DNA of 64,000 bases from Bacteroidia bacterium (GCA_014376805.1 JACMQU010000110.1:259-64258); one strand, 5' to 3'; counted from the stretch's first letter, positions 32,020-48,477 are shown. Notes: generated by a model from the sequence alone, not told the origin. A program made the numbers and translations.

Positions 32020-32097
32020 TCAGCTTAATTTTATTTGTCGGGTTATAATTCACCTGGCCCGTTTTTACTTTTTTTTATTAATAAAAATCAAACAATT

Positions 32098-35000
32098 ATG
32101 CTTGATGCAATTATCCGTTTTTCCATCCGGAACAAACTGATTATAGGAATATTTACGCTTGCCTTAATAGCGTGGGGAAGCTATTCTGTGACACAACTTC
32201 CTATTGATGCAGTGCCCGACATTACCAATAACCAGGTTCAGATAATTACCATAGCACCTTCACAAGCAGCTCAGGATATAGAAAGGTTAGTAACATTTCC
32301 TATTGAGCAAGCTGTGGCAACCATTTATGGAATATATGAAGTGCGATCATTTTCACGTTTTGGATTAAGTACCGTTACCGTTGTATTTAAAGATCATATT
32401 GATCCATATTGGGCAAGACAACAAATTGCGGAAAGGTTAAATAATGCCAGAGACCTGATACCTGCCGGGATCGGAATTCCAATACTTGCACCCTTGAGTT
32501 CTGGTTTAGGCGAAATCTATCAATATACTATTCATGAAAAAAAAGGATCTGATAAAAAATATTCCGCATTAGATTTACGTACTATACAAGACTGGATTGT
32601 TCGCAGACAATTACTGGGTGTAGAAGGTATAGCGGATGTAAGCAGTTTTGGCGGTAAGCTTAAACAATATGAAATATCTTTAAACCCTGATAAACTGAAG
32701 GGAATGAATATTACCATTAATGAAATATTTACTGCCCTGAAAAAGAATAACCAGAATACCGGGGGAGCCTACATTGATAAAAAACCTAATGCTTATTACA
32801 TACGTTCTGAAGGATTAATTGAAACATTAGATGACATAGAAAATATAGTAGTTAAGAACATGCAAAACGGAATACCTGTGCTAATAAGAGATGTTGCACA
32901 TGTTCAATTAGGCAATGCCATAAGATACGGAGCCATGACCTATAATGCGGATGGTGAAGTGGTAGGTGGTATTGTTATGATGCTAAAAGGAGCAAATTCA
33001 TCAAAGGTAATTGGCAATGTAAAAGAGCGTATAAAACAAATTGAAAAAACATTACCGGAAGGTTTAGCCATTGAACCATTTATAGATCGTACCAAACTTG
33101 TAAATAGCGCAATTAATACCGTAACAAAAAATCTGGCAGAAGGGGCATTGATTGTAATATTTATACTGGTGATTTTTTTAGGGAATTTTCGTGCAGGGAT
33201 TATTGTGGCATCGGTAATTCCACTCGCTATGTTGTTTGCTGTTTCATTAATGAACGTATTTGGTGTATCTGGTAATTTAATGAGTTTGGGAGCACTCGAC
33301 TTTGGATTGATTATAGATGGTGCTGTGATTATAGTAGAAGCAACTATGCATCATTTAGGATTAAGGGGTATTAACAGAAAACTTACCCAACCTGAAATGG
33401 ATGATGAAGTTTTTGAATCAGCCAGCAAGATCCGAAACTCAGCAGCTTTTGGAGAGATTATTATATTAATAGTTTATCTGCCAATACTTGCCCTGGTAGG
33501 TATTGAAGGGAAAATGTTTAAACCCATGGCGCAAACAGTTTCATTTGCAATAATAGGAGCGTTTATACTTTCTCTTACTTATGTACCTATGATTAGTGCT
33601 TTGTTTTTAAATAAAAACATCAGCAGTAAAAAAACCTTTTCTGATAAAATGATGGAAAAAATTTATGCGTGGTATAAGCCGCTTATATCCTATTCGCTTA
33701 ATAAATCAAAGTTGATAATTGGAATGGCCGTTATCATTTTTGTTTTTTCGTTATTTCTTTTTAATCGTTTAGGTGCAGAGTTTATACCATCGCTTGATGA
33801 AGGAGATTTTGCAGTTGAAACACGCGTACTAACGGGCAGTAGTTTAAGTGAAACAATAGAAGCGGCATCAAAAGCGGCAAAAATTTTATTAAAGGAATTT
33901 CCGGATGAAGTTAAAGAAGTGGTAGGAAAAATCGGATCATCTGAAATTCCCAGTGATCCAATGCCTATAGAAGCATGTGATTTGATGGTAATGTTAAAGC
34001 CTAAAGAGGAATGGAAGAAAGCAAATAGTGGTAATGAACTGGCAAATAAAATGGGAGAAGCTTTAGTGGACATTCCAGGGGTAACATTTAGCTTTCAGCA
34101 ACCAATTCAAATGCGTTTTAATGAGTTGATGAGTGGTGCAAGACAAGATGTGGTGATAAAAGTATATGGCGAAGATCTGGATATGCTTACTTCTTATGGT
34201 GAAAAAATAGGTAAAATTTTACCTGCTATTGAAGGGGCGGTTGACATATACGTTGAGAAAGTGACAGGACTGCCACAGATCATTATTAAATATAAAAGGG
34301 ATCAGATTGCAAAATTTGGAATGAACATAGAAGATATTAATCAAACTATTAATGCAGCATTTGCCGGCCAAAGTGCGGGCTTAGTGTACGAAAAAGAAAA
34401 AAGGTTTGATCTGGTAGTGCGTTTGGATTTAAACAGCAGACAAGGAATTGAAGATGTAAGGCAACTTTATGTTAACACCCCTGCAGGACTTCAAATACCT
34501 TTGCAGCAGGTTGCAGATGTATCTTTTGTGATAGGTCCTAATCAGATTCAAAGAGATGATGCGAAACGCAGAATAATTATTGGATTTAACATAAGAGGGC
34601 GCGATGTGGAAAGTATTGTAAATGAATTAAAAGATAAGATTGATACTAAAATAAAATTTGCTCCGGGTTATTATGTTACTTATGGCGGCACTTTTAAAAA
34701 TCTTGAAGAAGCCCGTTCACGTCTAATAATTGCAGTTCCTGTATCTTTATTATTAATTCTGATATTGTTGTATTTCACATTTGGTTCTATCATACAAAGT
34801 TTGTTAATTTTTACTGCCATACCGCTTTCTGCTATTGGGGGAATATTGGGCTTATGGGTGCGTGATATGCCTTTTAGCATTTCGGCCGGTGTGGGGTTTA
34901 TTGCACTGTTTGGTGTTGCCGTATTAAATGGCATAGTGCTGATTGGTGAGTTTAACAGGTTGAAAAAAAATGGTATTACAGACCTCCAAGAAATTATTTT

Positions 35001-36471
35001 AAAAGGAACACAAATAAGGCTGCGGCCGGTAATTATGACAGCCTGTGTTGCCTCATTAGGATTTCTTCCTATGGCGTTGTCGCACGGTGCCGGAGCTGAA
35101 GTACAAAAGCCTCTGGCAACAGTTGTTATAGGCGGGTTAATAACTGCCACTTTATTAACACTTATTGTATTGCCTTGTTTATATTTATTAATTGGCAAAC
35201 GTAAAAATCTAACATCAAAAATACCTTTAACAGTAATATTATTTTTGGTTTGTTTAGTGTTTAAAACCAAAAATGTTGCAGCTCAAAACATTCCTGTAAG
35301 TTTAGAAAGTGCCATCTCTATTGCTATAGAAAACAACAAAGGTTTGAAAGCAGTTTATAAGGAAAAAATGATATTTGAGTATCAAAAAAAAATGGCCACC
35401 GAATTGCCTAAAACGGATGTAAGCTTATTGTATGGTCAATACAATGGTTTTTATAAACAGGACAATAATTTTGCCGTAACCCAGATTATCCCGTTTCCTA
35501 CAGTATTCATTGCAAAATCGGCACTAGGAAATGAACGCATTAAAAGCGCAGAATATAAAATTGCATTTACACAAAATGAACTAATATACAGGGTAAAAAA
35601 TGTATATTATAATTTAATTTATCTTCAACTATTAGAAGGCATGTTGCTACAGCAGGATAGTGTTTACAAAGATTTTTCAAGGGCTGCAAGTTTAAAATAC
35701 AAAGTTGGTGAATCTACCTTATTAGAAAAAATGGCTGCTGAAAGTCGTATGCAGGAAATTGCAAACAGAATATTGAATAATGCTGCTGAGATCAAACAAA
35801 AACAAACGGAGTTTCAGTTCCTGCTTAACACAGATCGTAACTATATTATTGGTGAGTTTGTTAAAAATGAATTGTTGTTAAGCAGTAAAACCGATTCAAA
35901 TCAAATTCAGTTAAATCCTTATTTAAATTTTCTTAAACAGCAGGTGGCCATTGCTGAAAAGGAAAAATCGGTTGCTGTGAATTCATCTTTACCGGATTTT
36001 AAAATTGGATATTTTAATCAGAGTCTTTATGGTGTTCCGCTTAGTGATGTAAACATGCAATTTGCAGGAGCATCAAATAGATTTCAGGGCTTACATGTGG
36101 GTGTAATTTTTCCACTTTGGTTCGCACCGGATGTGGCAAAAGCCAAATCGTTTAAAGCCCAGGCTCTTACTGCTGAGCTCAATTTTCAATATCAGGAAAT
36201 GAATATTCAAAATCAATTTAAACAAATTGTTCTGAATTATATTAAGTCTAGAAATAGCCTGAATTATTACAATAACACAGCCTTACCAAATGTGAACCTG
36301 ATAAGCAGGCAATCTCAAATTGCCTATGCAAAAGGAGAATTAAGTTATACAGAATATTTATTGAGCCAGCAACAGGTAATAAGCATTCGTGAAAACTATC
36401 TGCAAACCTTAAATGAATATAACCAGGCTATCATTAACATCGAATTTTATACAGGTAATTATAACAAATAA
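32098..36471 (+). CDS. czcA: CzcA-type divalent-cation RND pump fused in frame to a TolC-like outer-membrane factor
   Basis: The first ~1040 aa are collinear with CzcA (EFIPSLDEGDFAVE, FSFQQPIQMRFNELMSGARQDV, 12 TM). Next comes KRKNLTSK + IPLTVILFLVCLVF + KTKNVAAQ, then about 400 aa of OMF-type helical repeats. No stop codon anywhere in the single 1478-codon ORF. Confidence 0.85.
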   Translation: MLDAIIRFSIRNKLIIGIFTLALIAWGSYSVTQLPIDAVPDITNNQVQIITIAPSQAAQDIERLVTFPIEQAVATIYGIYEVRSFSRFGLSTVTVVFKDHIDPYWARQQIAERLNNARDLIPAGIGIPILAPLSSGLGEIYQYTIHEKKGSDKKYSALDLRTIQDWIVRRQLLGVEGIADVSSFGGKLKQYEISLNPDKLKGMNITINEIFTALKKNNQNTGGAYIDKKPNAYYIRSEGLIETLDDIENIVVKNMQNGIPVLIRDVAHVQLGNAIRYGAMTYNADGEVVGGIVMMLKGANSSKVIGNVKERIKQIEKTLPEGLAIEPFIDRTKLVNSAINTVTKNLAEGALIVIFILVIFLGNFRAGIIVASVIPLAMLFAVSLMNVFGVSGNLMSLGALDFGLIIDGAVIIVEATMHHLGLRGINRKLTQPEMDDEVFESASKIRNSAAFGEIIILIVYLPILALVGIEGKMFKPMAQTVSFAIIGAFILSLTYVPMISALFLNKNISSKKTFSDKMMEKIYAWYKPLISYSLNKSKLIIGMAVIIFVFSLFLFNRLGAEFIPSLDEGDFAVETRVLTGSSLSETIEAASKAAKILLKEFPDEVKEVVGKIGSSEIPSDPMPIEACDLMVMLKPKEEWKKANSGNELANKMGEALVDIPGVTFSFQQPIQMRFNELMSGARQDVVIKVYGEDLDMLTSYGEKIGKILPAIEGAVDIYVEKVTGLPQIIIKYKRDQIAKFGMNIEDINQTINAAFAGQSAGLVYEKEKRFDLVVRLDLNSRQGIEDVRQLYVNTPAGLQIPLQQVADVSFVIGPNQIQRDDAKRRIIIGFNIRGRDVESIVNELKDKIDTKIKFAPGYYVTYGGTFKNLEEARSRLIIAVPVSLLLILILLYFTFGSIIQSLLIFTAIPLSAIGGILGLWVRDMPFSISAGVGFIALFGVAVLNGIVLIGEFNRLKKNGITDLQEIILKGTQIRLRPVIMTACVASLGFLPMALSHGAGAEVQKPLATVVIGGLITATLLTLIVLPCLYLLIGKRKNLTSKIPLTVILFLVCLVFKTKNVAAQNIPVSLESAISIAIENNKGLKAVYKEKMIFEYQKKMATELPKTDVSLLYGQYNGFYKQDNNFAVTQIIPFPTVFIAKSALGNERIKSAEYKIAFTQNELIYRVKNVYYNLIYLQLLEGMLLQQDSVYKDFSRAASLKYKVGESTLLEKMAAESRMQEIANRILNNAAEIKQKQTEFQFLLNTDRNYIIGEFVKNELLLSSKTDSNQIQLNPYLNFLKQQVAIAEKEKSVAVNSSLPDFKIGYFNQSLYGVPLSDVNMQFAGASNRFQGLHVGVIFPLWFAPDVAKAKSFKAQALTAELNFQYQEMNIQNQFKQIVLNYIKSRNSLNYYNNTALPNVNLISRQSQIAYAKGELSYTEYLLSQQQVISIRENYLQTLNEYNQAIINIEFYTGNYNK

Positions 36472-37763: not shown

Positions 37764-39791
37764 ATGATTAACAACGATCCTAACCATATACATCAATATG
37801 ATGCAAATGGAAAAATGATCTGCTGCTCCCTTGAAGAGAAAGTTTATTTAAAAGCGAATGCAGATAATTTGATTCATTCAAACAACAGGCATGCGGATGA
37901 ATCTGATCATTTGCATGTTCATTCATCTGATGAAGATACCCGGAAAGTATATATCCCGGCAACAATCAGTTTCATCTTTTTAAGCGCGGGTTTATTATTT
38001 GATTATTTTATAAAACCGGTTTTTTTTCAGGCTTACTTTAGGATTGCCTGGTATGTATTTGCTTATTTACCGGTTGGAATTCCTGTAATGAAGGATGCCA
38101 TAAAATCTATTGCAGCAGGTGCCTTGTTCTCCGAATTTTTCTTGATGTCTATTGCTACCCTGGGTGCTTTTTTTATCGGTGAATATGCAGAAGGAGTAAC
38201 AGTTATGTTATTTTATGCTGTGGGTGAATTGTTTCAGACGGCTGCTGTTAACCGCGCTAAAAAAAGTATAAAAGCCTTGTTGGATATGCGTCCCGATACT
38301 GTTAATATTTTAAGAAACGGATCTATACAAACAGTTTCTCCTGCTCAGGTTCAAATTGGTGAAACCCTTCAAGTGATGCCCGGAGAAAAGGTAGCGCTTG
38401 ATGGCGAATTGATTTCTGCCTCTGCCTCTTTTAATACTGCAGCCCTCACTGGCGAAAGCAAACCGGATACAAAAAATAAAGGTGAAATGGTGCTGGCTGG
38501 AATGATAAACTTAAATTCTGTTTCAGATATTATAGTCACTACTTTATTTAAGGATAGCAAATTGTCGAAAATATTAGAAATGGTGCAGGAGGCAACTTCG
38601 CGTAAATCGCAAACTCAATTGTTTATTACAAAATTTGCCAGAATATATACACCCATTGTTGTGCTGTTGGCACTTTGTATTTGTTTACTACCCTATTTTT
38701 TTGTGTCTGATTATGTTTTCAGTAATTGGCTATACCGCTCCTTAGTATTCCTGGTTATATCTTGTCCTTGTGCCTTGGTAATTTCTATTCCATTAGGATA
38801 TTTTGGTGGAATTGGATTGGCATCCCGAAACGGAATTTTATTTAAAGGCTCTAATTACTTAGATATAATGACTAAAATTGATACTGTTGTTATGGATAAA
38901 ACAGGCACCCTTACCAAAGGAGTATTTAAGGTTCAAGACGCTGTTAGTGCTGGTATTGAGCAAAATGAATTACTTAAACTAACTGCTGCTTTAGAAAGCA
39001 AATCAACTCACCCGATCGCAAAGGCAATATCTCTGCACGTTGGTGATGCATTTAAAAATGTAAGTGTAAGTAATGTTGAAGAAATTTCTGGTTATGGCTT
39101 AAAAGGAACTATTGATGGTAAAGAAGTATTGGCCGGCAATTTAAAATTGTTTAAAAAATATAACATCGATTACAACAAAATAATTGAAAACATAACAGAA
39201 ACCATTGTAGTAGTTGCAGTGAACAACAAATATGCAGGTTATATTACTATTGCAGATGAAATAAAAGAAGATGCTTCTCAAACAATTAAAGACTTGCATA
39301 GTATTCATATTAAAACAGTGATATTATCTGGCGATAAACAAAGTGTAGTTGATAAAATTGCAAAAAAATTAGGTATTGATACTGCTTATGGCGATTTATT
39401 ACCTGAACATAAAGTTGAAAAAGTACAGGCCTTAAAAAATGAAAATAGAACCATTGCCTTTGTTGGAGATGGTGTTAATGATGCGCCTGTTGTTGCACTG
39501 GCAGATGCCGGAATTGCCATGGGTGGTTTAGGTAGTGATGCCACCATAGAAACGGCTGATATTGTTATTCAGAACGACCAGCCTTCAAAAATTGTAACAG
39601 CTATTAAAATTGGCATACTTACCCGAAAAATTGTCTGGCAAAATATTGCCCTGGCTCTCTCTGTTAAAGTTATGGTTTTGATATTAGGTGCAATTGGCAC
39701 TGCTACATTATGGGAAGCAGTTTTTGCAGATGTAGGGGTGGCTTTACTTGCTATTTTAAATGCGGTAAGAATACAACGTGTAAAATTTTAA
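37764..39791 (+). CDS. P1B-type heavy-metal ATPase, Zn/Cd/Pb (ZntA/CadA) subtype
   Basis: CPC (SCPCALVIS), DKTGTLT and GDGVNDAP. TM7 Lys (LALSVKVMVL) and TM8 ADVG (D-x-G) match the P1B-2 signature. The N-terminus is His/Cys-rich with no HMA fold. Confidence 0.9.
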   Translation: MINNDPNHIHQYDANGKMICCSLEEKVYLKANADNLIHSNNRHADESDHLHVHSSDEDTRKVYIPATISFIFLSAGLLFDYFIKPVFFQAYFRIAWYVFAYLPVGIPVMKDAIKSIAAGALFSEFFLMSIATLGAFFIGEYAEGVTVMLFYAVGELFQTAAVNRAKKSIKALLDMRPDTVNILRNGSIQTVSPAQVQIGETLQVMPGEKVALDGELISASASFNTAALTGESKPDTKNKGEMVLAGMINLNSVSDIIVTTLFKDSKLSKILEMVQEATSRKSQTQLFITKFARIYTPIVVLLALCICLLPYFFVSDYVFSNWLYRSLVFLVISCPCALVISIPLGYFGGIGLASRNGILFKGSNYLDIMTKIDTVVMDKTGTLTKGVFKVQDAVSAGIEQNELLKLTAALESKSTHPIAKAISLHVGDAFKNVSVSNVEEISGYGLKGTIDGKEVLAGNLKLFKKYNIDYNKIIENITETIVVVAVNNKYAGYITIADEIKEDASQTIKDLHSIHIKTVILSGDKQSVVDKIAKKLGIDTAYGDLLPEHKVEKVQALKNENRTIAFVGDGVNDAPVVALADAGIAMGGLGSDATIETADIVIQNDQPSKIVTAIKIGILTRKIVWQNIALALSVKVMVLILGAIGTATLWEAVFADVGVALLAILNAVRIQRVKF

Positions 39792-39941
39792 CTGTTAAAA
39801 ATCAATAAGTAATGTTTAAAACAATAATCGTTATTTACAAAATTAATGATACTATAAAAAATGTAAATTGACACGCTTTAACCGATATAAAATGATTGTC
39901 TAATATCATTCAAAAGTTTAAAATATTTGAAAACTGAAAGC

Positions 39942-39967
39942 TCCACATTTCATGTAGATTTTTTTTT
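39942..39967 (+). terminator. Putative intrinsic terminator downstream of the ATPase gene
   Basis: TCCACAT and ATGTAGA form a 7-bp stem with one mismatch and a 3-nt loop, followed by nine T. It lies about 150 nt after the stop codon. Confidence 0.35.
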
Positions 39968-40118
39968 ACAGATACAATTTATAACATAAGTTAAATAGTA
40001 CTTAATTATTTACTTATTTATATGCGCATACTAGAATAATAGCCCCAATAAATCATCCTTTCATCATTCTAAGTAATCTTTACTCAAGAACAAAAATATA
40101 ATTGATTTTTTTATTGGT

Positions 40119-40149
40119 TTTGGTAATTCGAGAAATACATTTAGATTTG
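40119..40149 (+). promoter_or_regulatory. Complete Bacteroidota promoter (-33 TTTG / 19 nt / -7 TAGATTTG)
   Basis: TTTG at 40119-40122, a 19-nt spacer and TAGATTTG at 40142-40149, ending 31 nt before ATG 40181. Confidence 0.5.
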
Positions 40150-40180
40150 TTTAAAAATATTTTTAATAATATCTAAATTT

Positions 40181-41377
40181 ATGTTTCCAATACGAACTTC
40201 TATAGTAGTTTTTTCAGCATTTATATTCATAAGTGCATGTATAAAACTGGAACCTTCTGCACCAGATAGCAATAATGTGTTAGATGGTCCCTTAGCTGAA
40301 CTTAATCACGAGCAAATGATTCAGCACATGCATGGAGATGCTGCATTTAATGATGCTATTTTTACATCTGAAAATGGTCTGGGCCCTGTATTTGTAGCAA
40401 ACACCTGTGCAAGTTGCCATGCAGGAGATGGAAAAGGCCACCAGTTTACCTCCTTAACGCGTTTTGGACAATCAGACAGCACAGGAAATTTATTTATTGG
40501 TAAAGGTGGGCCACAATTACAAAACAGAGCCATTCCGGGATTTCTCCCAGAACAACTTCCCTTTGGGGTACCTTTCACAAAATTAGTGGCTCCTGCTGTT
40601 ACGGGTTTAGGTTTCATTGATGCGGTAACGGATGCGGATATTATTGCCATGGCTGATCCAACAGATGCAGATGGAGACGGAATATCAGGTGTATTAAGTG
40701 TTGCTATTTTACCTTCATATGTAATTCCCCGAAACATGGCTATTCCACAAAATGGTTATTTCATTTGTAGGTTTGGCAAAAAAGCCGGTGCTTATGATTT
40801 GGTTTTACAAACGGCAAAAGCTTATAATCAGGATATGGGAATAATTTCGGGTTATGAGCCGGTTGATCCACATAGTAATTTGGCCGGAGATCCGGAAATA
40901 ACAGCACAAACTATTCAGGATAATGTATTTTATCAAAAGACTTTAAAAGCCCCACTTGCCCGAAATCAAAATAATTCTGATGTAATTTCAGGTAAGCAAA
41001 TTTTCATAAATATCGGTTGTGTAACTTGTCATAAAAAAGAGTTAAAAACAGGCCATTCAACAATAAGTTCATTATCCGAAAAATTATTCTTTCCTTACAC
41101 AGATTTACTGCTGCATGACATGGGTTCAGATCTGGATGATGGTTATACAGAAGGTTCAGCCAAATCAAGTGAATGGAGAACACCTGCACTATGGGGACTG
41201 GGATTAAGCAAAAACTCCCAGGGTGGAAATTATTTTTTAATGCATGATGGCAGGGCAACTACTATTGAACAAGCTGTTTTATTACATGGCGGAGAGGGGA
41301 GCAAAAGCCGCTCACAATACAATGCTTTAACCGAAACTGAAAGGAAAAAACTCCTTATATTTTTAGAAAACTTATAA
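40181..41377 (+). CDS. Di-haem cytochrome c oxidoreductase/peroxidase-like lipoprotein (DUF1111 family)
   Basis: Lipoprotein signal (FISAC) and two CxxCH haem motifs (CASCHAGDGKG; CVTCHKKEL). The family-typical end is TPALWGLG...LMHDGRATTIEQAVLLHGGEG. Confidence 0.8.
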   Translation: MFPIRTSIVVFSAFIFISACIKLEPSAPDSNNVLDGPLAELNHEQMIQHMHGDAAFNDAIFTSENGLGPVFVANTCASCHAGDGKGHQFTSLTRFGQSDSTGNLFIGKGGPQLQNRAIPGFLPEQLPFGVPFTKLVAPAVTGLGFIDAVTDADIIAMADPTDADGDGISGVLSVAILPSYVIPRNMAIPQNGYFICRFGKKAGAYDLVLQTAKAYNQDMGIISGYEPVDPHSNLAGDPEITAQTIQDNVFYQKTLKAPLARNQNNSDVISGKQIFINIGCVTCHKKELKTGHSTISSLSEKLFFPYTDLLLHDMGSDLDDGYTEGSAKSSEWRTPALWGLGLSKNSQGGNYFLMHDGRATTIEQAVLLHGGEGSKSRSQYNALTETERKKLLIFLENL

Positions 41378-41820
41378 TGAACCGGAGCACATTTATAAAG
41401 CAAGGGTGTATTTCATGCCTGGGGATAAGTCTCGGAATGTCACTCTTTAATTCCTGTAAATCCATACATTATGTAAATGGTAAGATGTCAGAAAATAACC
41501 TGAGTATCCCGATAACCGAATTTTCTGAACCTAATAAAAAAGGTAACGATACTTACAGAAAATATATTTTAGTTAAACATGAATCTCTTCAATATCCAAT
41601 TTGTGTTTATCGCATTTCCGGCAATGATTATAAAGCATTATGGCTACGTTGTTCGCATCAGGGTGCAGAATTGCAAGTGTCGGGTGATACTTTAGTTTGT
41701 CTGGCTCATGGATCAGAATTTGATAATTCAGGTAAAGTAACCAATGGACCTGCTGATAAAGACCTGCGAACTTTTATAACGTATCTTAAAAACGAACATT
41801 TAAACATAGTTTTAAAATGA
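41377..41820 (+). CDS. Rieske [2Fe-2S] domain protein
   Basis: CxH (LRCSHQG) and CxxH (CLAHGSEFD) Rieske ligand boxes at the usual spacing. TAATG overlap with the upstream gene. Confidence 0.8.
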   Translation: MNRSTFIKQGCISCLGISLGMSLFNSCKSIHYVNGKMSENNLSIPITEFSEPNKKGNDTYRKYILVKHESLQYPICVYRISGNDYKALWLRCSHQGAELQVSGDTLVCLAHGSEFDNSGKVTNGPADKDLRTFITYLKNEHLNIVLK

Positions 41821-43049
41821 AAAAATATTTATTTCTTATCTTATTGCAACTGGTTATACTCACCTCATTTGCGCAGGTTGATACTTCTTTATTCAAAACG
41901 ATCGCAAAAGATACTTCCTATAAAAACAACCTGATGAATATGGATGCTGTCTATAGCAGACCTTTTTTGAATTATTCAAAATCTCCGGTTTCAATTGGTG
42001 GTTATCTCGAAGCAAATTATCAGCACTTAGGTACAAACGGAATTAGTGAAGGACATCAGTTTCAGATGCGCAGAATGACCCTATTTATTGCATCATCCAT
42101 AAAAAACAGAATTAAGTTTTTGTCTGAAATAGAATTTGAAGATGGAACTAAAGAAATAAACATTGAGTTTGCCGCTGTTGATTTTACTTTCAATCCTATG
42201 ATAAATATAAGAGGCGGTATCCTGATGAATCCTATCGGGGCATTTAACCAGAATCATGATGGGCCTAAGTGGGAGTTTATAGACAGGCCTATATCAGCAA
42301 CACAAATGCTTCCCGCTACCTGGAGTAATGTAGGTTTCGGATTATATGGTAAAAAATATTCAGGTAACTGGATTTATGCTTATGAAGTTTATTTAACCAA
42401 TGGATTTGATGATCGGATCATAGCAAATAATGCAAACCGAACCAACCTGGCAGCAACTAAAGCAAATAAAAACCGTTTTGAAGAGAGCCCCAACGGAGAA
42501 CCGCTCTACACCGGAAAGTTTGCCATACGCAATAGAAAAATCGGGGAATTAGGTCTTTCTTATATGGGAGGCATCTATAACAAATTTCAGATAGATGGGT
42601 TCAACATTGATAAAAAGCGAAGTGTACATACATTTGCCATCGACTTTAATACAACATTACCGGTACTAAACACGAAGTTAATTGCAGAATGGGCTATGGT
42701 GGTAGTAGATGTTCCACCAACCTATTCACAGCAATTTGGAGATAAACAATATGGTGGCTTTTTAGATGTTGTTCAACCGGTTTTTAAAAAGCAAATGCAG
42801 GGTTTTCATAATGCTGTATTAAACCTTGCCTGCCGGTTTGAATTTGTGGATTGGAATGTGGCTACATTTAGAGAAACCGGAGGGAATATTGCTGATCATA
42901 TTTGGGCGGTTGTTCCTGCTGTTTCATTCAGACCTTCGCAACAAACTGTAATACGAATTAACTATCGCTATCAGCAACAAACGGATTTGTTAGGTAATAT
43001 ACCATTGCGAACCGGTGGATTTCAGATTGGATTCTCTACTTATTTTTAA
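41817..43049 (+). CDS. Outer-membrane porin-like beta-barrel protein
   Basis: ATGA overlap with the Rieske gene. Signal peptide, GGYLEANYQHL...FQMRRMTLFI...SEIEFEDG...RGGILMNPIGAFNQNHD pattern reminiscent of phosphate-selective-porin-like barrels, ending GFSTYF. Confidence 0.5.
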   Translation: MKKYLFLILLQLVILTSFAQVDTSLFKTIAKDTSYKNNLMNMDAVYSRPFLNYSKSPVSIGGYLEANYQHLGTNGISEGHQFQMRRMTLFIASSIKNRIKFLSEIEFEDGTKEINIEFAAVDFTFNPMINIRGGILMNPIGAFNQNHDGPKWEFIDRPISATQMLPATWSNVGFGLYGKKYSGNWIYAYEVYLTNGFDDRIIANNANRTNLAATKANKNRFEESPNGEPLYTGKFAIRNRKIGELGLSYMGGIYNKFQIDGFNIDKKRSVHTFAIDFNTTLPVLNTKLIAEWAMVVVDVPPTYSQQFGDKQYGGFLDVVQPVFKKQMQGFHNAVLNLACRFEFVDWNVATFRETGGNIADHIWAVVPAVSFRPSQQTVIRINYRYQQQTDLLGNIPLRTGGFQIGFSTYF

Positions 43050-43185
43050 TGAAGTTCAATATTTAATCATGACCAATACAAATTAATTTTACCATAAATT
43101 ATTCTCACTGAAAAAACGGGGGAAGAATAATTCTCAAAAACAATCAATTTGGATAATTCAAAAAAGAACCTTAGCTTGCACAGTA

Positions 43186-43578
43186 TTGAAAAAAATTGTA
43201 GCCATATTATTACTTTTTAGCTTTTTTCTGGCAAATTCAGGAATGGCGGTTTCAATGCACTGGTGTGGCGGTAAAATAACACATATCAGTTTTTTTTCCA
43301 ACGATTCACACCTTTGTTCCTGCAAAAAAAAGGAAAAGGACATGAAACCCGGCTGTTGTAAAGACAAAACAGCTTTCTTTAAATTAAAAAGTGAAATAAA
43401 TTCTCCAAATAATCACTCCTTTAAAGCATCAGTTTTTCAGATTATTTATATTCATTTTAACCAAAAAGAAACAGCGTATCTTTCTCTATATAAATTTACG
43501 AATACATTCTTCTATTATCCTCCCCCATTTAAACCTAAAGTTCCTACTTATATTACCAACGGAGTTTTTATCATTTAA
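43186..43578 (+). CDS. HYC_CC_PP-like small Cys-rich membrane protein, second copy
   Basis: TTG start, TM helix, MHWCGGK, GCCKDK and YPPPFKPK, ending NGVFII. The 5' end is conserved at the nucleotide level with 18853-18895. Confidence 0.55.
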   Translation: MKKIVAILLLFSFFLANSGMAVSMHWCGGKITHISFFSNDSHLCSCKKKEKDMKPGCCKDKTAFFKLKSEINSPNNHSFKASVFQIIYIHFNQKETAYLSLYKFTNTFFYYPPPFKPKVPTYITNGVFII

Positions 43579-43709
43579 TATTTCTGAAGTAATCTTAACC
43601 GTCATATCTGAACGGTTATTGAAGTTTTGGCATATCTGTGAGTCAGATTTGCGGCCAATTCAATTATACTTTTATAAAACTCAACAAAAATTATTTAAAA
43701 ATTTAAAAT

Positions 43710-44501
43710 ATGAAAAAATCAATTTTACTTTCACTTGTTTTGACGTTCGTTATTACGATTTCCAAAGCTCAGACTACTGCCATGAATTTCAATAAGAAAG
43801 ATTGCAGTGGCACCATGCACAATCTTTTTACGGATTTAGATGCAGGTAATGCAGTTATCCTTCATTTTTTTATGCCTAATTGCGGAAGTTGTCCTCCTCC
43901 GGCTCAAAAAATTCAGGCAATGGCAAATAATATTTTGAAATCACATCCCGGAAAAATAAAAGCTTATGCTATACCGTTCAACAATTCCACTACTTGTTCT
44001 TATGCATCAACTTGGGTTTCTTCTAATGGGCTTTCTTTATATACAGCATTAGATAGTGGTTCTGCTCAAGTAGCTCATTATGGCGGTTTTGGTATGCCTA
44101 CAGTAGTTGTTTTAGGTGGTATAGATCATAAAGTGTTGTTTTCAACGCTGAGTTTTTCAACCAGCGATACTACCACTATGAGGAATTCAATATTAAATAT
44201 GCTGAATGGTACTGCCGGAATTGATACTAAAATTATCAATGATATTCCTGCAATTAGTGTATTTCCAAATCCGGCAATAGATAACATGCAGATTGAACTT
44301 AATTTAAGCCAGACATCAAATATTAAAATTGAAGTTATAAACATGCTTGGAGAAATTGTAAGTGCTGTTTATAATGGTAAAGCCGGTGAAGGTGTTTTAA
44401 GAAAAGAGGTTTCAACAACTGATTTTAGTAATGGGATTTATTTTGTAAGGGTAATTTCAAATAATAATTTACAGAATTACAAATTCACAGTTACGCATTA
44501 A
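43710..44501 (+). CDS. Thioredoxin-fold CxxC protein with T9SS C-terminal sorting domain, second copy
   Basis: DCSGTMHNLF..NAVILHFFMPNCGSC, FGMPTVVVLGG, CTD (VFPNPAIDNMQIEL...NGIYFVRVISN...YKFTVTH). Confidence 0.6.
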   Translation: MKKSILLSLVLTFVITISKAQTTAMNFNKKDCSGTMHNLFTDLDAGNAVILHFFMPNCGSCPPPAQKIQAMANNILKSHPGKIKAYAIPFNNSTTCSYASTWVSSNGLSLYTALDSGSAQVAHYGGFGMPTVVVLGGIDHKVLFSTLSFSTSDTTTMRNSILNMLNGTAGIDTKIINDIPAISVFPNPAIDNMQIELNLSQTSNIKIEVINMLGEIVSAVYNGKAGEGVLRKEVSTTDFSNGIYFVRVISNNNLQNYKFTVTH

Positions 44502-45205
44502 TGTTTAAGGGTATCCAGGTAAAATTAAAAACAGGACTGGCAGTGGTTTTAACCACTGCCACTGTCTTCACTTTTGCTCAAAGCTATAATATTACGCCCA
44601 ACGATACTTTCATGGATCTGACGCCATTTAATAAACTCAGCCATTTTACCATACAACAAAATAACCTTACTAACGGAAAACTCCTTTTTAACTGGCAGCA
44701 GTTAGTTTTAAATATTCCATCCGGCTGGACAGCTAATTTATGCGACAATGGGCATTGCTATGCCGACTTTCCAGTAAAAGGGAAAATGGATACTGTTTTT
44801 AAAAGTGAATATGGAATGATGTCTCTAGGGATTGATCCCGGTATGGTATCCGGAACCGCACTTATCCGCTATGCAATCTGGGAGCAAAGTACACCTGAAA
44901 ATATGGATACCTTAACCTGGATTATTTCTTCAAACAGTGCAACCGGATTTACCGAAACAGAGCCTGATAAATCGTTGCTGATTTTTGTTGATGTAAGCGG
45001 AGATAACATTCATTTGTTAACATCATTGAATAAAGGTTTTTATTGCTCAATTTCTGATATTTCAGGTAAACAGGTTTATTCTGAAAATTTCATTTTTTCT
45101 ACAGCAAATATTTCTTCAGAAAATTTCCCAAATGGTTTTTATAATATTCTGATTATGGATTCCAATAAGAATATCAAAACTAAAAAAATAATGATTCAAC
45201 ACTAA
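44501..45205 (+). CDS. Small secreted CxNGxC protein with a T9SS-CTD-like end
   Basis: TAATG overlap. Signal peptide, FNWQQL...GWTANLCDNGHCY and the tail GKQVYSENF...FPNGFYNILIMD...KKIMIQH. Paralogue of 51682..52380. Confidence 0.5.
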   Translation: MFKGIQVKLKTGLAVVLTTATVFTFAQSYNITPNDTFMDLTPFNKLSHFTIQQNNLTNGKLLFNWQQLVLNIPSGWTANLCDNGHCYADFPVKGKMDTVFKSEYGMMSLGIDPGMVSGTALIRYAIWEQSTPENMDTLTWIISSNSATGFTETEPDKSLLIFVDVSGDNIHLLTSLNKGFYCSISDISGKQVYSENFIFSTANISSENFPNGFYNILIMDSNKNIKTKKIMIQH

Positions 45206-45211
45206 TTTACC

Positions 45212-46942
45212 ATGAGATTAACTGCCTTCTTCATTTTAGTCTATCAATCCCTGGTTTCACAGGCACAAAATCCTCTTTATATCCCGCCCGCTTTAACGGG
45301 TCCGGTATTTAATTTAAATATTCAGAGTGGGAGTAAAATGTTTTATGGTACAAATGCAACCCCTACTTATGGCGTTAATGGATCGTGGATGGCACCTACC
45401 CTGATAGTTAACAAAGGAGACAGTATTACCCTGCATGTTAAAAACGGACTGTCTGTAAAAACAACGATGCACTGGCATGGCTTGCATGTTGCTGCAAAAA
45501 ATGACGGAGGTCCACATCAGATAATATTACCCTTAGGAACCTGGAGTCCCTCATTTAAGATAAGAAATAATGCAGCTACCTTCTGGTATCACCCTCATGG
45601 TGCCGGACAAACTGATCCACAGGTATCAAAGGGCCTGGCAGGTTTTATAATTGTTAGAGACAGCACTGAGGCCTCCCTTAATTTGCCACGTACTTATGGA
45701 TTAGATGATATACCTTTAAATGTGCAGAGCAAGGCATTTGATGAATTAAAACAAATAGCTATTTCAACGGATATGGACACGGCACTTTTTGTAAACGGTA
45801 CTTTGCATCCATTGCTTAATGTACCACAACAAGTGGTTCGTTTTCGCTTATTAAATGGCAGCAGTTTACGTTCATATAATCTGGGTTTTTCTAATGGGCA
45901 GATCTTTTATCAGATTGCAACTGACGGAGGTTTACTGGATACGCCTGTTACACTTTCCCGTTTACGCCTTTCTCCCGGAGAAAGAGCAGAGATCCTTGTT
46001 AATTTTTCAGGTTTAATAGGGCAAACAATTAATTTAAAGAGCTATTCATCTGAGTTGGCAAAGGGTATTTATGGTGCCGACAGTATTGGAAAAGGCATAG
46101 ATATTATTGATGCGTATAATGATAATTTTCTGAATGGTTCTGATTTTAACCTGCTACAGATAAATATTGGTGCAACATCAGTTAATCCGGTTATAACAGT
46201 GCCCCTTAGCTTAGTACCCTTTAAACACTTTAATATTACTTCAGCTACACGTTACCGTAAAATTGAATTTGATACCATTCGTTTGCTGCCTGCTGATGTA
46301 CCAAATCTGGCAGATGGACCTTTTGGCATGAACCATAAAAGTTTTGATATGGAAACTATTAATGAGATAGTTCATTTGAATACAACGGAAATCTGGACAC
46401 TTGTAAACCATACGCTGGTGGCTCACCCTTTTCACATACACGATGTACAATTTGAAGTAATTGAAAAAAACGGAAAGCCAATATCTATAAGCGATAAGGG
46501 CTGGAAAGATGTTGTTTTGATAATGCCTAACGACAGTGTAAAATTTATCAGCAGGTTTGAAACTTTTTCTGACCCAATGGTGCCTTATATGTATCATTGT
46601 CATTTGCTACACCATGAAGATGATGGTATGATGGCAAGTTTTTTAGTAATTGATACTTCTGCTTCAACCGGAATTATAAATGTAGAGCAAGTGCACTATC
46701 TGCTATATCCTAATCCGGCAATCAATAACCTTACATTTCAATTTAAAGATGCCATTCATTTTGCTGAGGTAAACATAATTAATGTATTAGGGGAAATTAT
46801 TCTAAAGCAAACTATATCCAATTCCAATTCACTGATACTTGATGTTTCAACAATTAAAGAGGGTATGTATTTTATTCAGGTTATAGAAAGAGGAAATACC
46901 GAAAATAATCGTTTCTCCATACAAAAATTTATTAAACAATAA
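45212..46942 (+). CDS. Multicopper oxidase (CueO/CopA-like) with T9SS C-terminal sorting domain
   Basis: All four copper motifs are present: HWHGLH, WYHPH, HPFHIHD and HCHLLHHEDDGMM. The C-terminal CTD reads LYPNPAINNLTFQF...GMYFIQVIE...QKFIKQ. Confidence 0.9.
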   Translation: MRLTAFFILVYQSLVSQAQNPLYIPPALTGPVFNLNIQSGSKMFYGTNATPTYGVNGSWMAPTLIVNKGDSITLHVKNGLSVKTTMHWHGLHVAAKNDGGPHQIILPLGTWSPSFKIRNNAATFWYHPHGAGQTDPQVSKGLAGFIIVRDSTEASLNLPRTYGLDDIPLNVQSKAFDELKQIAISTDMDTALFVNGTLHPLLNVPQQVVRFRLLNGSSLRSYNLGFSNGQIFYQIATDGGLLDTPVTLSRLRLSPGERAEILVNFSGLIGQTINLKSYSSELAKGIYGADSIGKGIDIIDAYNDNFLNGSDFNLLQINIGATSVNPVITVPLSLVPFKHFNITSATRYRKIEFDTIRLLPADVPNLADGPFGMNHKSFDMETINEIVHLNTTEIWTLVNHTLVAHPFHIHDVQFEVIEKNGKPISISDKGWKDVVLIMPNDSVKFISRFETFSDPMVPYMYHCHLLHHEDDGMMASFLVIDTSASTGIINVEQVHYLLYPNPAINNLTFQFKDAIHFAEVNIINVLGEIILKQTISNSNSLILDVSTIKEGMYFIQVIERGNTENNRFSIQKFIKQ

Positions 46943-46951
46943 AACAACGAC

Positions 46952-48412
46952 ATGAAAAAAGCAACTCTAATCATAGCCGGTTTACTTTTTAATTTTATTG
47001 TCATCAATGCACAAACAAACCTTGTTTGGAAGATGGGGATGAATATTTCTACGGGTGCTTATGGGAATATGCATCCACGAATAGTGCTTGATGGTAAAGG
47101 CAATCCGTTGGTGATTTGGGGCAGGATGTCTGATGCCTCAGTTATGTTTTCGCGATGGACAGGTACTGCTTTTACAACGCCTGTAAAATTAAATCCTTCT
47201 TGGCTTTCCATTGCAACAGCCACCTGGATGGGGCCTGATATTGCATCCAAAGGAGATACCGTTTATGTAGTTGTAAAACGCATACCGGAAGCTTCTGATA
47301 CCAACCATATTTATCTGATACGTTCGTTTAATGGAGGCATTTCATTCTTTGCTCCGGTTCGTATCGATTTAATCGCCGACAGTATTTCTCGTTTTCCTGC
47401 TGTTACAGTAGATGCCACAGGAAATCCTATGGTGGCATTTATGAAATTTAATTCATCATTTCTCGATTCGAGGTGGGTAGTAACTAAATCTATAGATTAT
47501 GGAATCTCCTTTTCTCCGGATATAAAAGCAAGTGGCTGGAGTGGTGCCAAAGCAGAAGTATGTGATTGCTGCCCTGGCGCAATTATCTCTGATGGGAATG
47601 TAACATCAATGCTTTACCGGGATAACCTGAGTAATAAACGGGACATCTGGACAGGTATTTCAACAAATAACAATGTATCATTCAGTGATGGTTTTGCAAC
47701 AGATAATAGCAACTGGATGTTAATGTCATGCCCTTCCAGCGGGCCTGATGGAGTTATTATTGGTGATACCTTGTACACTGTATTTTTAAGTGGAGCAGGA
47801 GGTAAGAACAAAAACTATATCAGCAAATCATCTGTAAGTGAAAACAAATTAAAATCAATATCTCCACTAACAGGAAGTATAACCGGACTTACCCAGCAGA
47901 ATTTTCCGCGAATTGCAAGTGATGGCATTGCTGCGGCAATTGTATGGAAACAAACTGTTAATGGAAATGATCAATTGCCGCTTCTGTTCACAAATAATAT
48001 AGCTAAAGGTTTTACTGTTTATGATACTGTTGATTTAAACGATATTACAAATGCCGATGTGGCTGTAAATAAGGGAAATATATTTGTTGTATGGGAAGAT
48101 GATAATTCAGGAACTGTAAAGTTTCGACAAGGAACATACAAATATGTTACTACCGGAATACCGGCACAGGTAACCGATCCCGTTACCTCAATAAATGTTT
48201 TTCCTAACCCGGTAAATGATGTATTGAATATAGTATCACCATCGGGTGAAAATTATGTGTTGAACATTTATAATTCTCTGGGTGAAAAAATGTTTACTAT
48301 GGAATCATCCATAAATCTCCTGGTGCCTACTTCCACATTTCCTTCAGGCATTTATTTCATTGAATGGCGGACGGACAAACTTATTCACAATCAAAAAATT
48401 ATTAAACCGTGA
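46952..48412 (+). CDS. Asp-box (BNR/sialidase-like) beta-propeller protein with T9SS CTD
   Basis: Asp-box-like repeats (RSFNGGISF, KSIDYGISF). CTD VFPNPVNDVLNIV...SGIYFIEWR...QKIIKP. Confidence 0.55.
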   Translation: MKKATLIIAGLLFNFIVINAQTNLVWKMGMNISTGAYGNMHPRIVLDGKGNPLVIWGRMSDASVMFSRWTGTAFTTPVKLNPSWLSIATATWMGPDIASKGDTVYVVVKRIPEASDTNHIYLIRSFNGGISFFAPVRIDLIADSISRFPAVTVDATGNPMVAFMKFNSSFLDSRWVVTKSIDYGISFSPDIKASGWSGAKAEVCDCCPGAIISDGNVTSMLYRDNLSNKRDIWTGISTNNNVSFSDGFATDNSNWMLMSCPSSGPDGVIIGDTLYTVFLSGAGGKNKNYISKSSVSENKLKSISPLTGSITGLTQQNFPRIASDGIAAAIVWKQTVNGNDQLPLLFTNNIAKGFTVYDTVDLNDITNADVAVNKGNIFVVWEDDNSGTVKFRQGTYKYVTTGIPAQVTDPVTSINVFPNPVNDVLNIVSPSGENYVLNIYNSLGEKMFTMESSINLLVPTSTFPSGIYFIEWRTDKLIHNQKIIKP

Positions 48413-48477
48413 AAAGTATTTTTTTATCTTTTGGTTTACTACTCTTCATGCGCTTTATACAAATAAATCCGGTTAAA

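Follow-up and report, generated by a model that had tools for sequence, protein, structure and literature searches.

Introduction

To our knowledge, the way in which manganese crosses the Gram-negative outer membrane is known for very few organisms, and the ability of Gram-negative bacteria to use the oxidised manganese that dominates oxic soils, waters and ice is largely unknown. Among the closest described systems is the MnoP and MntH pair of Bradyrhizobium japonicum, in which, according to a published summary, a porin is co-regulated with an Nramp importer by a manganese-responsive repressor and is needed when manganese is scarce (PMC9334652). In a second group of described operons, DUF1111 proteins are found with EfeO-like proteins and have been assigned to iron uptake (PMC3143127; bioRxiv 10.1101/072470). 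Here we analyse a three-gene operon, at positions 40,119 to 43,049 of a 64,000-nucleotide stretch of DNA from a glacier metagenome (Bacteroidia bacterium, GCA_014376805.1, JACMQU010000110.1:259-64258; hereafter the window, meaning the whole stretch), which joins a di-haem DUF1111 lipoprotein, a Rieske [2Fe-2S] lipoprotein and an outer-membrane porin. We found no description of this triad in the open-access literature and bioRxiv.

An earlier reading of the same DNA, made from its sequence alone (the original prediction), had proposed a periplasmic electron-transfer module coupled to the passage of a metal ion, peroxide or metalloid through the outer membrane, possibly exchanging electrons with a neighbouring copper-oxidase cluster. 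The analysis presented here indicates that the triad is probably a widespread, undescribed and repressor-controlled module for the acquisition of a redox-active divalent metal, most likely manganese. We assign a probability of roughly 0.6 to this reading as a whole, that is, to metal-repressed envelope uptake of a redox-active divalent metal, most likely manganese, with a redox mechanism that we infer. Its parts differ in strength: it is quite likely that the triad forms the envelope part of a metal-repressed uptake module, the chances that the metal is manganese are about even, and the proposed reductase mechanism is tentative.

Results

Conservation of the triad

The three genes of the operon are arranged as follows:

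40181..41377, + strand: di-haem DHOR/DUF1111 lipoprotein, 398 amino acids (Pfam PF06537)
41377..41820, + strand: Rieske [2Fe-2S] lipoprotein, 147 amino acids (Pfam PF00355)
41817..43049, + strand: outer-membrane porin, 410 amino acids, with a predicted OprP/OprO-like fold (AlphaFold model and Foldseek)

All three open reading frames (ORFs) are intact, with every ligand present, and their coordinates are exactly those of the original prediction. Both of the stop/start overlaps it had described were confirmed base by base, TAATG at 41375-41379 between the DHOR and Rieske genes and ATGA at 41817-41820 between the Rieske and porin genes, and a Logan assembly made independently from the same sequencing run of the glacier metagenome reproduced positions 40100-41450 without differences.

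The conservation of the triad was assessed in two surveys. The first took one genome per species, with 80 loci fetched and neighbourhood counts made over 81 genome loci; the second comprised 80 fetched metagenomic loci from a clade whose porin is 39% identical to that of the window and whose G+C (GC) content is 56-77% in all loci but one (42%), referred to below as the high-GC clade. The porin is carried by at least 596 species representatives. Among the matches listed, the named species are all Bacteroidota, except for one contig labelled Reyranella, and the groups represented are Chitinophagales, Cytophagales, Sphingobacteriales, Flavobacteriales, Saprospiraceae and one member of Marinilabiliales. 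The wider porin superfamily reached 1601 representatives at E<=1e-3 in an exhaustive profile search, and another of its members was found in candidate division KSB1.

Every locus with enough upstream DNA had the order DHOR, Rieske, porin on one strand, both among the genome loci (69/69) and in the high-GC clade (53/53), and the ATGA overlap of the Rieske and porin genes was kept in 67 of 77 loci. The co-conservation of the three genes, on which the original prediction had staked its case, was thereby found in both surveys, and the haem and Rieske ligands, on which it had also depended, are invariant in the alignments described below. The ORF and overlap checks, together with the conserved order, bear out a self-contained, translationally coupled operon, and on this gene-order evidence the triad is one invariant, translationally coupled unit across the Bacteroidota and the distant high-GC clade.

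Operator and regulator

The intergenic regions of the family share a palindrome, TTAG-N6-CTAA (consensus TTAGAYTAGYCTAA), the core of the classical DtxR/IdeR iron box; the operator of locus L107, TTAGGTTAGCCTAA, is one example that matches this core. Scored over an interval from ~120 nucleotides (nt) before the DHOR gene to 70 nt beyond its called start, the exact palindrome was present at the DHOR promoter in 64 of 71 genome loci, irrespective of an adjacent regulator gene, and only 18 other exact sites were found in 1.13 Mb of genome loci. In the high-GC clade, the exact operator was present at the promoter in 47 of 56 loci, and all 75 exact sites in 631 kb lay at the cluster promoter, before dtxR where dtxR leads the operon. 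Close relatives of the window have a TAnnTTTG -7 box 5-8 nt after the operator; the operator thus overlaps the promoter, an arrangement typical of repressor control. Two other features of these sites were observed: tandem exact operators, 22-23 bp apart and just upstream of DHOR, occur in 25 loci (L090-L161), and in the examined 631 kb these AT-rich palindromes are confined to cluster promoters, though the genomes are 60-77% GC.

A DtxR-family regulator (PF01325, PF02742 and FeoA) is adjacent to the triad in 43 of the 81 genome loci, and in the first three neighbourhoods that were read a divergent dtxR-type gene lay directly upstream of it. The closest solved relatives of this regulator are manganese sensors, namely the metal-dependent regulator 5zr4 (1.7e-36), SloR (1.8e-34) and ScaR (6.6e-34), compared with 1e-23 for IdeR and 1e-18 for DtxR. 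At the position of DtxR Cys102 it carries Glu in 54 of 54 sequences, and at the position of DtxR Met10 it carries Asn (Bacteroidota) or Asp (high-GC clade). Within the DtxR family it is the ligand pattern that sets manganese versus iron selectivity, and the aligned ligand set of the triad's regulator corresponds to the oxygen-donor pattern of manganese sensors of the MntR/ScaR type. Given such an operator and such a regulator, the triad should be repressed under metal sufficiency and expressed under metal scarcity.

Divalent-cation importers in the cluster

An Nramp/MntH gene (PF01566, E 4.9e-139) accompanies the triad on the same strand and within the same cluster in 13 loci, in one of two gene orders, dtxR-nramp-DHOR-Rieske-porin or dtxR-DHOR-Rieske-porin-nramp; in one Bacteroidota locus (L031) the operator is followed by dtxR, DHOR, Rieske, porin and nramp with overlapping gene boundaries. 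A Cyclobacteriaceae locus (L057) contains, in order, an operator, dtxR, a TroA-like binding protein (3.4e-85 against 1toa), DHOR, Rieske, the porin, the ATPase of an ATP-binding cassette (ABC) transporter and two ABC-3 permeases, and in a Lutibacter locus (L066) Tro-like ABC importer genes follow the porin. From gene linkage, these three independent joinings with inner-membrane divalent-cation importers provide strong evidence that the triad serves uptake. The conserved partners, namely the repressor with its operator and the Nramp/Tro importers, point to metal acquisition and not to resistance; they likewise speak against peroxide or metalloid handling, which the original prediction had offered among its possible substrates. 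An arsenite or other metalloid oxidase was rejected as a candidate, with no molybdopterin subunit present anywhere in the neighbourhoods.

One of these loci also holds an unusual transporter: at 10412-11704 of L057, a Tro-like ABC-3 permease (PF00950) is joined to a metal-binding/dimerisation domain of the DtxR C-terminal type (PF02742), and the product would be a transporter that senses metal through a domain of its own.

The original prediction had remarked on the lack of an imelysin/EfeO-type neighbour, and this was confirmed: no imelysin/EfeO or DUF1513 partner lies near the triad in the window or is found among the recurrent neighbour families of the 160 loci, nor are imelysin, Ftr1 or Feo genes recurrent neighbours in the surveyed loci.

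A published data set bears on the regulation of the triad. In Bizionia argentinensis, the adjacent genes annotated 'cytochrome c' (BZARG_RS03000) and 'Rieske (2Fe-2S) protein' (BZARG_RS03005) rank second and third among the down-regulated transcripts (log2 3.5-3.7) of a delta-mliR mutant, which has low cellular Fe, Mn and Zn; they fall with siderophore receptor, imelysin and Feo genes, superoxide dismutase is co-regulated, and the two genes were interpreted in that study as respiratory complex III and cytochrome c (PMC9478572). The quantitative PCR primers used for the two genes translate to CHAGDGK and YLDQGGP (DHOR) and to VLEGPAD (Rieske), which match the motifs CxxCHAGDGKGH ... GGPQLQ of DHOR and V-x-x-GPAD of Rieske in Flavobacteriales loci. 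Judged by these motifs, the Bizionia pair can be identified as orthologues from the triad that are co-regulated with metal-uptake genes, an identification that would correct the published complex III/cytochrome c reading (PMC9478572).

The Bizionia genes also raise the question of whether the metal is iron. The same module under the same regulation could serve iron uptake, with the porin admitting Fe(II) or small Fe(III) chelates and with DHOR and Rieske acting as a periplasmic ferric reductase or as a ferroxidase, the latter being the role proposed for DUF1111 in imelysin/EfeO clusters, and feeding Nramp, Tro-type or Feo importers. Such a reading draws on the operator core, which is identical to the DtxR/IdeR iron box, on the EfeO-like iron-uptake operons in which other DUF1111 proteins are found, on the siderophore receptor, imelysin and Feo genes that accompany the Bizionia orthologues, and on the ability of Nramp and Tro systems to carry Fe(II). 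Yet the regulator has the oxygen-donor ligands of manganese sensors where DtxR/IdeR have Met/Cys, the main substrate of bacterial Nramp/MntH is manganese, two haems and a 2Fe-2S cluster would be costly to induce under iron starvation, and the recurrent neighbours do not include imelysin, Ftr1 or Feo. On balance we hold iron to be the less likely metal by some distance, and its probability to be low.

Porin

The porin of the window gave no Pfam or NCBIfam match, Porin_O_P (PF07396) included, and a Pfam scan of its distant relatives gave only sub-threshold hints of BBP2 and Porin_O_P (one at 16.7 bits against a cut-off of 20.9). An AlphaFold model built from 34 homologues is a beta-barrel of moderate confidence (predicted local distance difference test, pLDDT, 70.5; predicted template-modelling score, pTM, 0.70). 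Its top matches in the PDB are OprP (2o4v) and OprO (4rjw), at Foldseek E 1e-11 to 1e-10 and template-modelling (TM) scores of 0.56-0.58 (best single figures E 1.5e-11 and TM 0.58), followed by general 16-stranded porins; the sequence identity to OprP/OprO is 12%, and the sizes are 411-426 against 410 amino acids. A 16-stranded OprP-like fold of the third gene product has, from this model, moderate support. The 410-residue barrel that the original prediction had called is thus recovered as a modelled OprP/OprO-like fold, whereas the porin O/P profile it had pointed to gave no match.

The protein has a signal peptide that is predicted to be cleaved before an invariant Q20, and its C-terminus reads ...SxYF. 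An internal loop, N138-G175 (FNQNHDGPKWEF), is very conserved; conservation within the protein peaks at FNQNHDGPKWEF...RP (143-158), a segment that the model places between its strands 5 and 6 (E130-136 and E171-182), where it would occupy the position of a constriction loop. A stripe of acidic residues, E104/E106/E108 and E113/E117, alternates with hydrophobic residues on a beta-hairpin and is conserved in both clades; this strand-alternation pattern would put the conserved acidic residues on the polar face and suggests that they are of the lumen type. Homologues of the porin number 5710 in a large protein collection, the best being 65-80% identical, and the mean column identity across Bacteroidota orders is 78%, a value that is unusually high for an outer-membrane barrel. 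The motifs are retained in the 39%-identical high-GC clade.

An operon that pairs an outer-membrane barrel with a c-type cytochrome lipoprotein, the barrel being conserved like an enzyme subunit, brings to mind a miniature porin-cytochrome conduit to extracellular manganese or iron oxides (or from Fe(II)), in the manner of MtrAB, PioAB or Cyc2. However, an OprP-like barrel of ~16 strands with an internal loop would be too narrow to enclose a protein, CxxCH motifs are absent from the barrel, the triad has two haems only, and the N-terminus of DHOR shows no obvious Bacteroidota surface-export motif. This candidate was rejected on the small size of the barrel and the number of haems, and we give it very little credence.

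DHOR and Rieske lipoproteins

The first gene product matches Pfam PF06537 (DHOR, the former DUF1111) with E 3.5e-58 and 197.7 bits against a cut-off of 22; it is ~100 residues shorter than the Pfam model (398 amino acids against 499 positions) and its best match extends only over residues 231-398. It has a lipobox, FISAC, at Cys20, and is predicted to be a lipoprotein in both clades. Its two haem motifs are CASCH (C76, C79, H80) and CVTCH (C280, C283, H284), and these six ligands are invariant in 34 homologues as well as in 117 sequences of the two clades, as are H312-D313-M314, E331-W332, H355-D356-G357 and H369; the positions of a DxDxDG-like loop at 159-170 are also conserved in both clades. 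Sequence and profile searches of DHOR against the PDB returned matches only in the haem-motif region of small cytochromes, and the cytochrome c peroxidases of the PDB reached a profile E of ~0.8 (1iqc, 3o5c), which is not significant.

The second gene product matches Pfam PF00355 (E 3.1e-12, 46.7 bits against a cut-off of 20.3) and has the CSH and CLAH boxes of a Rieske protein, whose cluster ligands C92, H94, C108 and H111 are invariant in 24 of 24 aligned sequences. The identities that the original prediction had given to these two proteins, a DUF1111-type lipoprotein with two CxxCH haem sites and a 147-residue Rieske protein, are both upheld by the profile matches and the invariant ligands. 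The Rieske protein has a lipobox at Cys27, with a lipoprotein predicted in both clades, and its closest solved relative is PDB 5cxm (E 5.6e-10), a b6f-type Rieske protein of 110 amino acids. The disulfide cysteines of bc-type proteins are absent from the window protein (CSHQGA / CLAHGS) and from the Bacteroidota consensus (CTHQGA / CxAHGS); the high-GC clade keeps them (CTHxGC / CPCHGS). By these motifs the Rieske protein would belong to the b6f/bc lineage, with the disulfide cysteines lost in the Bacteroidota copies, where alanine stands in their place.

Twin-arginine translocation (Tat) type RR or RK is present in the signal peptides of 23 of 23 aligned Rieske homologues, with RR in the five nearest relatives, and the high-GC clade also carries a Tat-type RR/RK signal together with a lipobox. 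The signal peptide of the window protein, at 41377-41400, reads N-R-S-T-F (MNRSTFIK), with R-S in place of the twin arginine, and this may impair its export by the Tat pathway; a single substitution would turn the Ser codon concerned, AGC, into an Arg codon. As a separate observation, the Bacteroidota proteins have, besides the lipobox C27, two invariant cysteines within the hydrophobic region of the signal peptide (C11 and C14 in the window), which the proteins of the high-GC clade lack.

The two lipoproteins could also be seen as a periplasmic peroxidase, DHOR acting like a di-haem cytochrome c peroxidase (CCP) with Rieske as its electron donor and the pair, switched on under manganese scarcity, replacing manganese-dependent antioxidant defences, the porin being only loosely related. 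Pfam describes DHOR as a putative peroxidase, its HDG and RTPxL-like motifs resemble those of the CCP/MauG family (the profile E being only ~0.8, as given above), and the co-regulation of superoxide dismutase in Bizionia would suit this role. What it leaves unexplained is an exceptionally conserved porin that is coupled to Rieske in 67 of 77 loci, as well as the Nramp/Tro-like importers in the same operon, and H2O2 needs no specific channel. We consider a peroxidase improbable.

The window copy and its surroundings

The promoter region of the triad in the window contains the following features:

40119..40149, + strand: Bacteroidota-type promoter-like motif (TTTG, 19 nt, TAGATTTG), which ends 31 nt before the start codon
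40141..40154, no strand given: degenerate DtxR/MntR-type operator, site 1, TTAGATTTGTtTAA, with one mismatch
40163..40176, no strand given: degenerate operator, site 2, TTAaTAATATCTAA, with one mismatch, 22 bp after site 1

The mismatch of site 1 is a C to T change at a position that is invariant in 64 of 64 family sites, and the -7 box of the window, TAGATTTG, lies inside this site. The 22-bp gap between the two sites is the tandem spacing of the family (compare TTAAAATAATCTAA at +22 in L026 and L036). The 14-mer of site 1 recurs unchanged in L028 as its second, promoter-proximal site, and there an exact operator lies another 22 bp upstream; the window equivalent of that upstream operator (40119-40132) has three mismatches. 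A tblastn search with three DtxR-like proteins found no DtxR homologue, intact or decayed, in the 64-kb window, including the 389-bp spacer. From this pattern, the window copy may have lost tight repression after moving beside efflux genes, possibly with constitutive expression as the outcome.

The window contains 5 copies of the promoter pattern TTTGN{17,21}TANNTTTG, where 4.6 would be expected by chance. The position of the motif is plausible and the pattern alone is not evidence; of the consensus promoter that had been claimed, the motif at 40119-40149 stands, but its frequency equals chance. The AT-rich spacer that follows the P1B-ATPase gene is real and measures 389 bp. The possible terminator proposed for it found no support: a scan of 39500-43800 for sigma-70 promoters and terminators returned as many hits as shuffled sequences did, with no terminator in the spacer, and the best spacer hairpin was no better than shuffles (z -1.19).

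Profile scans of the window proteins confirmed that the triad sits in a metal island, which contains an RND pump fused to an outer-membrane factor, a membrane-fusion protein, a Zn/Cd-type P1B ATPase, a HYC_CC_PP protein and two multicopper oxidases with sorting tails of the type IX secretion system (T9SS). The fusion is a single ORF of 1478 amino acids at 32035-36471 that combines the RND pump (ACR_tran, E 1e-283) with the outer-membrane-factor domain (OEP), and Daejeonella (L005) and 23 genome loci have the same RND-OEP fusion. Directly 3' of the triad, at 43186-43578, lies the gene of the HYC_CC_PP family protein (NCBIfam NF047658, E 7e-14); small Cys-rich genes of the DUF6660 or HYC_CC_PP-like kind are found near the triad in ~19 genome loci, mostly just downstream. 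Further on, at 43710-50157, come six consecutive genes whose products all have a T9SS C-terminal sorting domain, among them CueO-like multicopper oxidases (45212-46942 and 48409-50157) and a thioredoxin-like protein. Given their T9SS tails, the multicopper oxidases are probably secreted or surface-attached and not periplasmic.

With the triad placed between the Zn/Cd-type ATPase and RND efflux genes on one side and the T9SS-tailed multicopper oxidases on the other, and with efflux genes next to the triad in 23-30 of the 81 genome loci, it might be regarded as a redox accessory of the resistance island, either supplying electrons to the multicopper oxidases or removing them, or carrying out redox chemistry on a toxic metal or metalloid that passes through the porin. 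The neighbourhood statistics have already weakened this view. Multicopper oxidases neighbour the triad in only 7 of 81 loci, and a partnership with them was rejected on that ground; the closest relatives of the window copy lie among housekeeping, non-metal genes. The electron link to the copper-oxidase cluster that the original prediction had suggested is for both of these reasons unsupported. Moreover, the regulator is a repressor of the type used for uptake genes, its operator overlaps the promoter, it is importers and not exporters that join the operon, and the T9SS tails would put the oxidases outside the cell, whereas the triad is periplasmic. We regard a resistance role as very improbable, and the island context of the triad as recurrent and not defining.

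In a Cyclobacteriaceae genome (L003, 1793-4657, and L004, 249-3113), the regulator-triad unit lies beside a phage-type integrase, a tyrosinase and a copper ATPase, a setting that suggests that such metal islands are mobile.

Discussion

The general outline of the original prediction, a periplasmic haem c and [2Fe-2S] module with an outer-membrane metal channel, fits all of the findings; the conserved partners speak against the peroxide and metalloid substrates that it had also entertained. In the mechanism that we propose, the porin, with an acidic instead of a basic stripe, would admit cationic metal species across the outer membrane, and DHOR, with its two c-type haems, and the Rieske [2Fe-2S] protein would pass single electrons to the metal in the periplasm. 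Oxidised, non-transportable Mn(III) complexes or manganese oxides (alternatively Fe(III)) would be reduced in this way to M(II), and the resulting divalent ion would be taken up by the Nramp or ABC importers. Nramp and Tro/Mnt ABC importers accept only divalent cations, and redox centres are useful only for a redox-active substrate; since the importers take M(II), a one-electron reduction is the simplest role for the two lipoproteins. Manganese is favoured by the ligand set of the regulator, by Nramp/MntH being the commonest importer partner and by the iron cost of the module, which at four Fe atoms for its haem and Fe-S centres fits a response to manganese starvation better than one to iron starvation. 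In the window, the module would have been separated from its regulator, keeping two one-mismatch operators, and may be expressed constitutively in a Zn/Cd/Cu resistance island.

The most specific form of this proposal would be a manganese-selective porin of OprP fold and a periplasmic haem c/Rieske 'Mn(III) reductase', feeding Nramp/Tro importers under an MntR-type repressor in several phyla; stated in such detail, it is doubtful.

Several points weigh against the proposed uptake function. Mn(II) is fairly soluble and stable, and a reductase is not obviously needed for it; the redox step and its direction are pure inference, and the module encodes no electron donor. The structural side is limited too, the model of the porin being only moderately confident and the AlphaFold model of DHOR, built from 34 homologues, being too poor (pLDDT 53.9) for a view of the active site, a fold search or a structural assignment. 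The importers are linked to the triad in only 15 of ~160 loci, efflux and resistance genes are neighbours in about one third of the Bacteroidota loci, and in the window there is neither a regulator nor an importer (no Nramp gene lies in its 64 kb), nor was the exact TTAG-N6-CTAA found at the promoter of the triad. An operator that is an iron box and the ties of other DHOR proteins to iron uptake make iron a serious alternative, and the Bizionia regulon is iron-centred (PMC9478572).

At least ~600 species-level genomes of aerobic Bacteroidota carry the module described here, which also occurs in other phyla, and with it three families that are annotated as hypothetical or putative, namely DUF1111, a small periplasmic Rieske protein and an unannotated porin, become a testable system. 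Its operator motif offers a means of mapping the regulon in any genome. In the window, the operon is better described as an uptake-type module with weakened control elements that is located in a resistance island than as an accessory of copper oxidases. If the most specific form of the proposal is true, the triad would be the first redox-assisted manganese uptake system, and a DUF1111 protein and a stand-alone periplasmic Rieske lipoprotein would each have a function assigned for the first time.

Comparison with known systems

The imelysin/EfeO-like-DUF1111-DUF1513 operons (IrpA/IcmP/PIBO-type) share with the triad the same Pfam DHOR family, regulation by metal and an envelope location. The triad lacks the imelysin/EfeO and DUF1513 components, however, and has in addition a Rieske lipoprotein and a dedicated porin, a shorter DHOR, a DtxR/MntR-type operator and links to Nramp/Tro-type importers. 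MnoP, the manganese-regulated porin of the MntR/Mur-controlled uptake system of B. japonicum, has by its description no redox partners and a Fur-family regulator, whereas the regulator of the triad belongs to the DtxR family; the two were compared by description.

The TroABCD-TroR, SloABC-SloR and ScaCBA-ScaR systems resemble the triad in that its regulator is closest to SloR and ScaR, and in the Tro-like genes of L057 and L066. These cluster A-I ABC importers with a DtxR-family manganese sensor have no haem, Rieske or porin components, and most of them come from monoderm bacteria or spirochaetes. OprP and OprO, the phosphate and pyrophosphate porins of Pseudomonas aeruginosa, are the best structural matches of the triad porin and similar to it in size, but the triad porin has no PF07396 match, and where OprP has an arginine ladder (title of 2o4v), the triad porin has conserved acidic residues that are putatively of the lumen type.

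Small periplasmic Rieske proteins of the PetC3 type (5cxm) share with the triad protein a small b6f/bc-type domain that does not clearly belong to a cytochrome bc complex; the Rieske protein of the Bacteroidota triad differs in having lost the disulfide cysteines and in its genomic partners, DHOR and the porin. The porin-cytochrome modules MtrAB, PioAB and Cyc2, finally, also combine a barrel with a c-type cytochrome and carry out metal redox chemistry in the envelope, but they either have far more haems than the two of the triad or carry a haem within the barrel protein by fusion, their barrels are larger or different, and they have no Rieske protein; we know of no such module under MntR-type control. 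In its control and its partners the triad is akin to MnoP-MntH uptake and to the Tro/Slo/Sca operons, and in one component to the imelysin-DUF1111 clusters. From all of the systems compared here, the triad differs in that it combines haem, Rieske and porin as an invariant unit.

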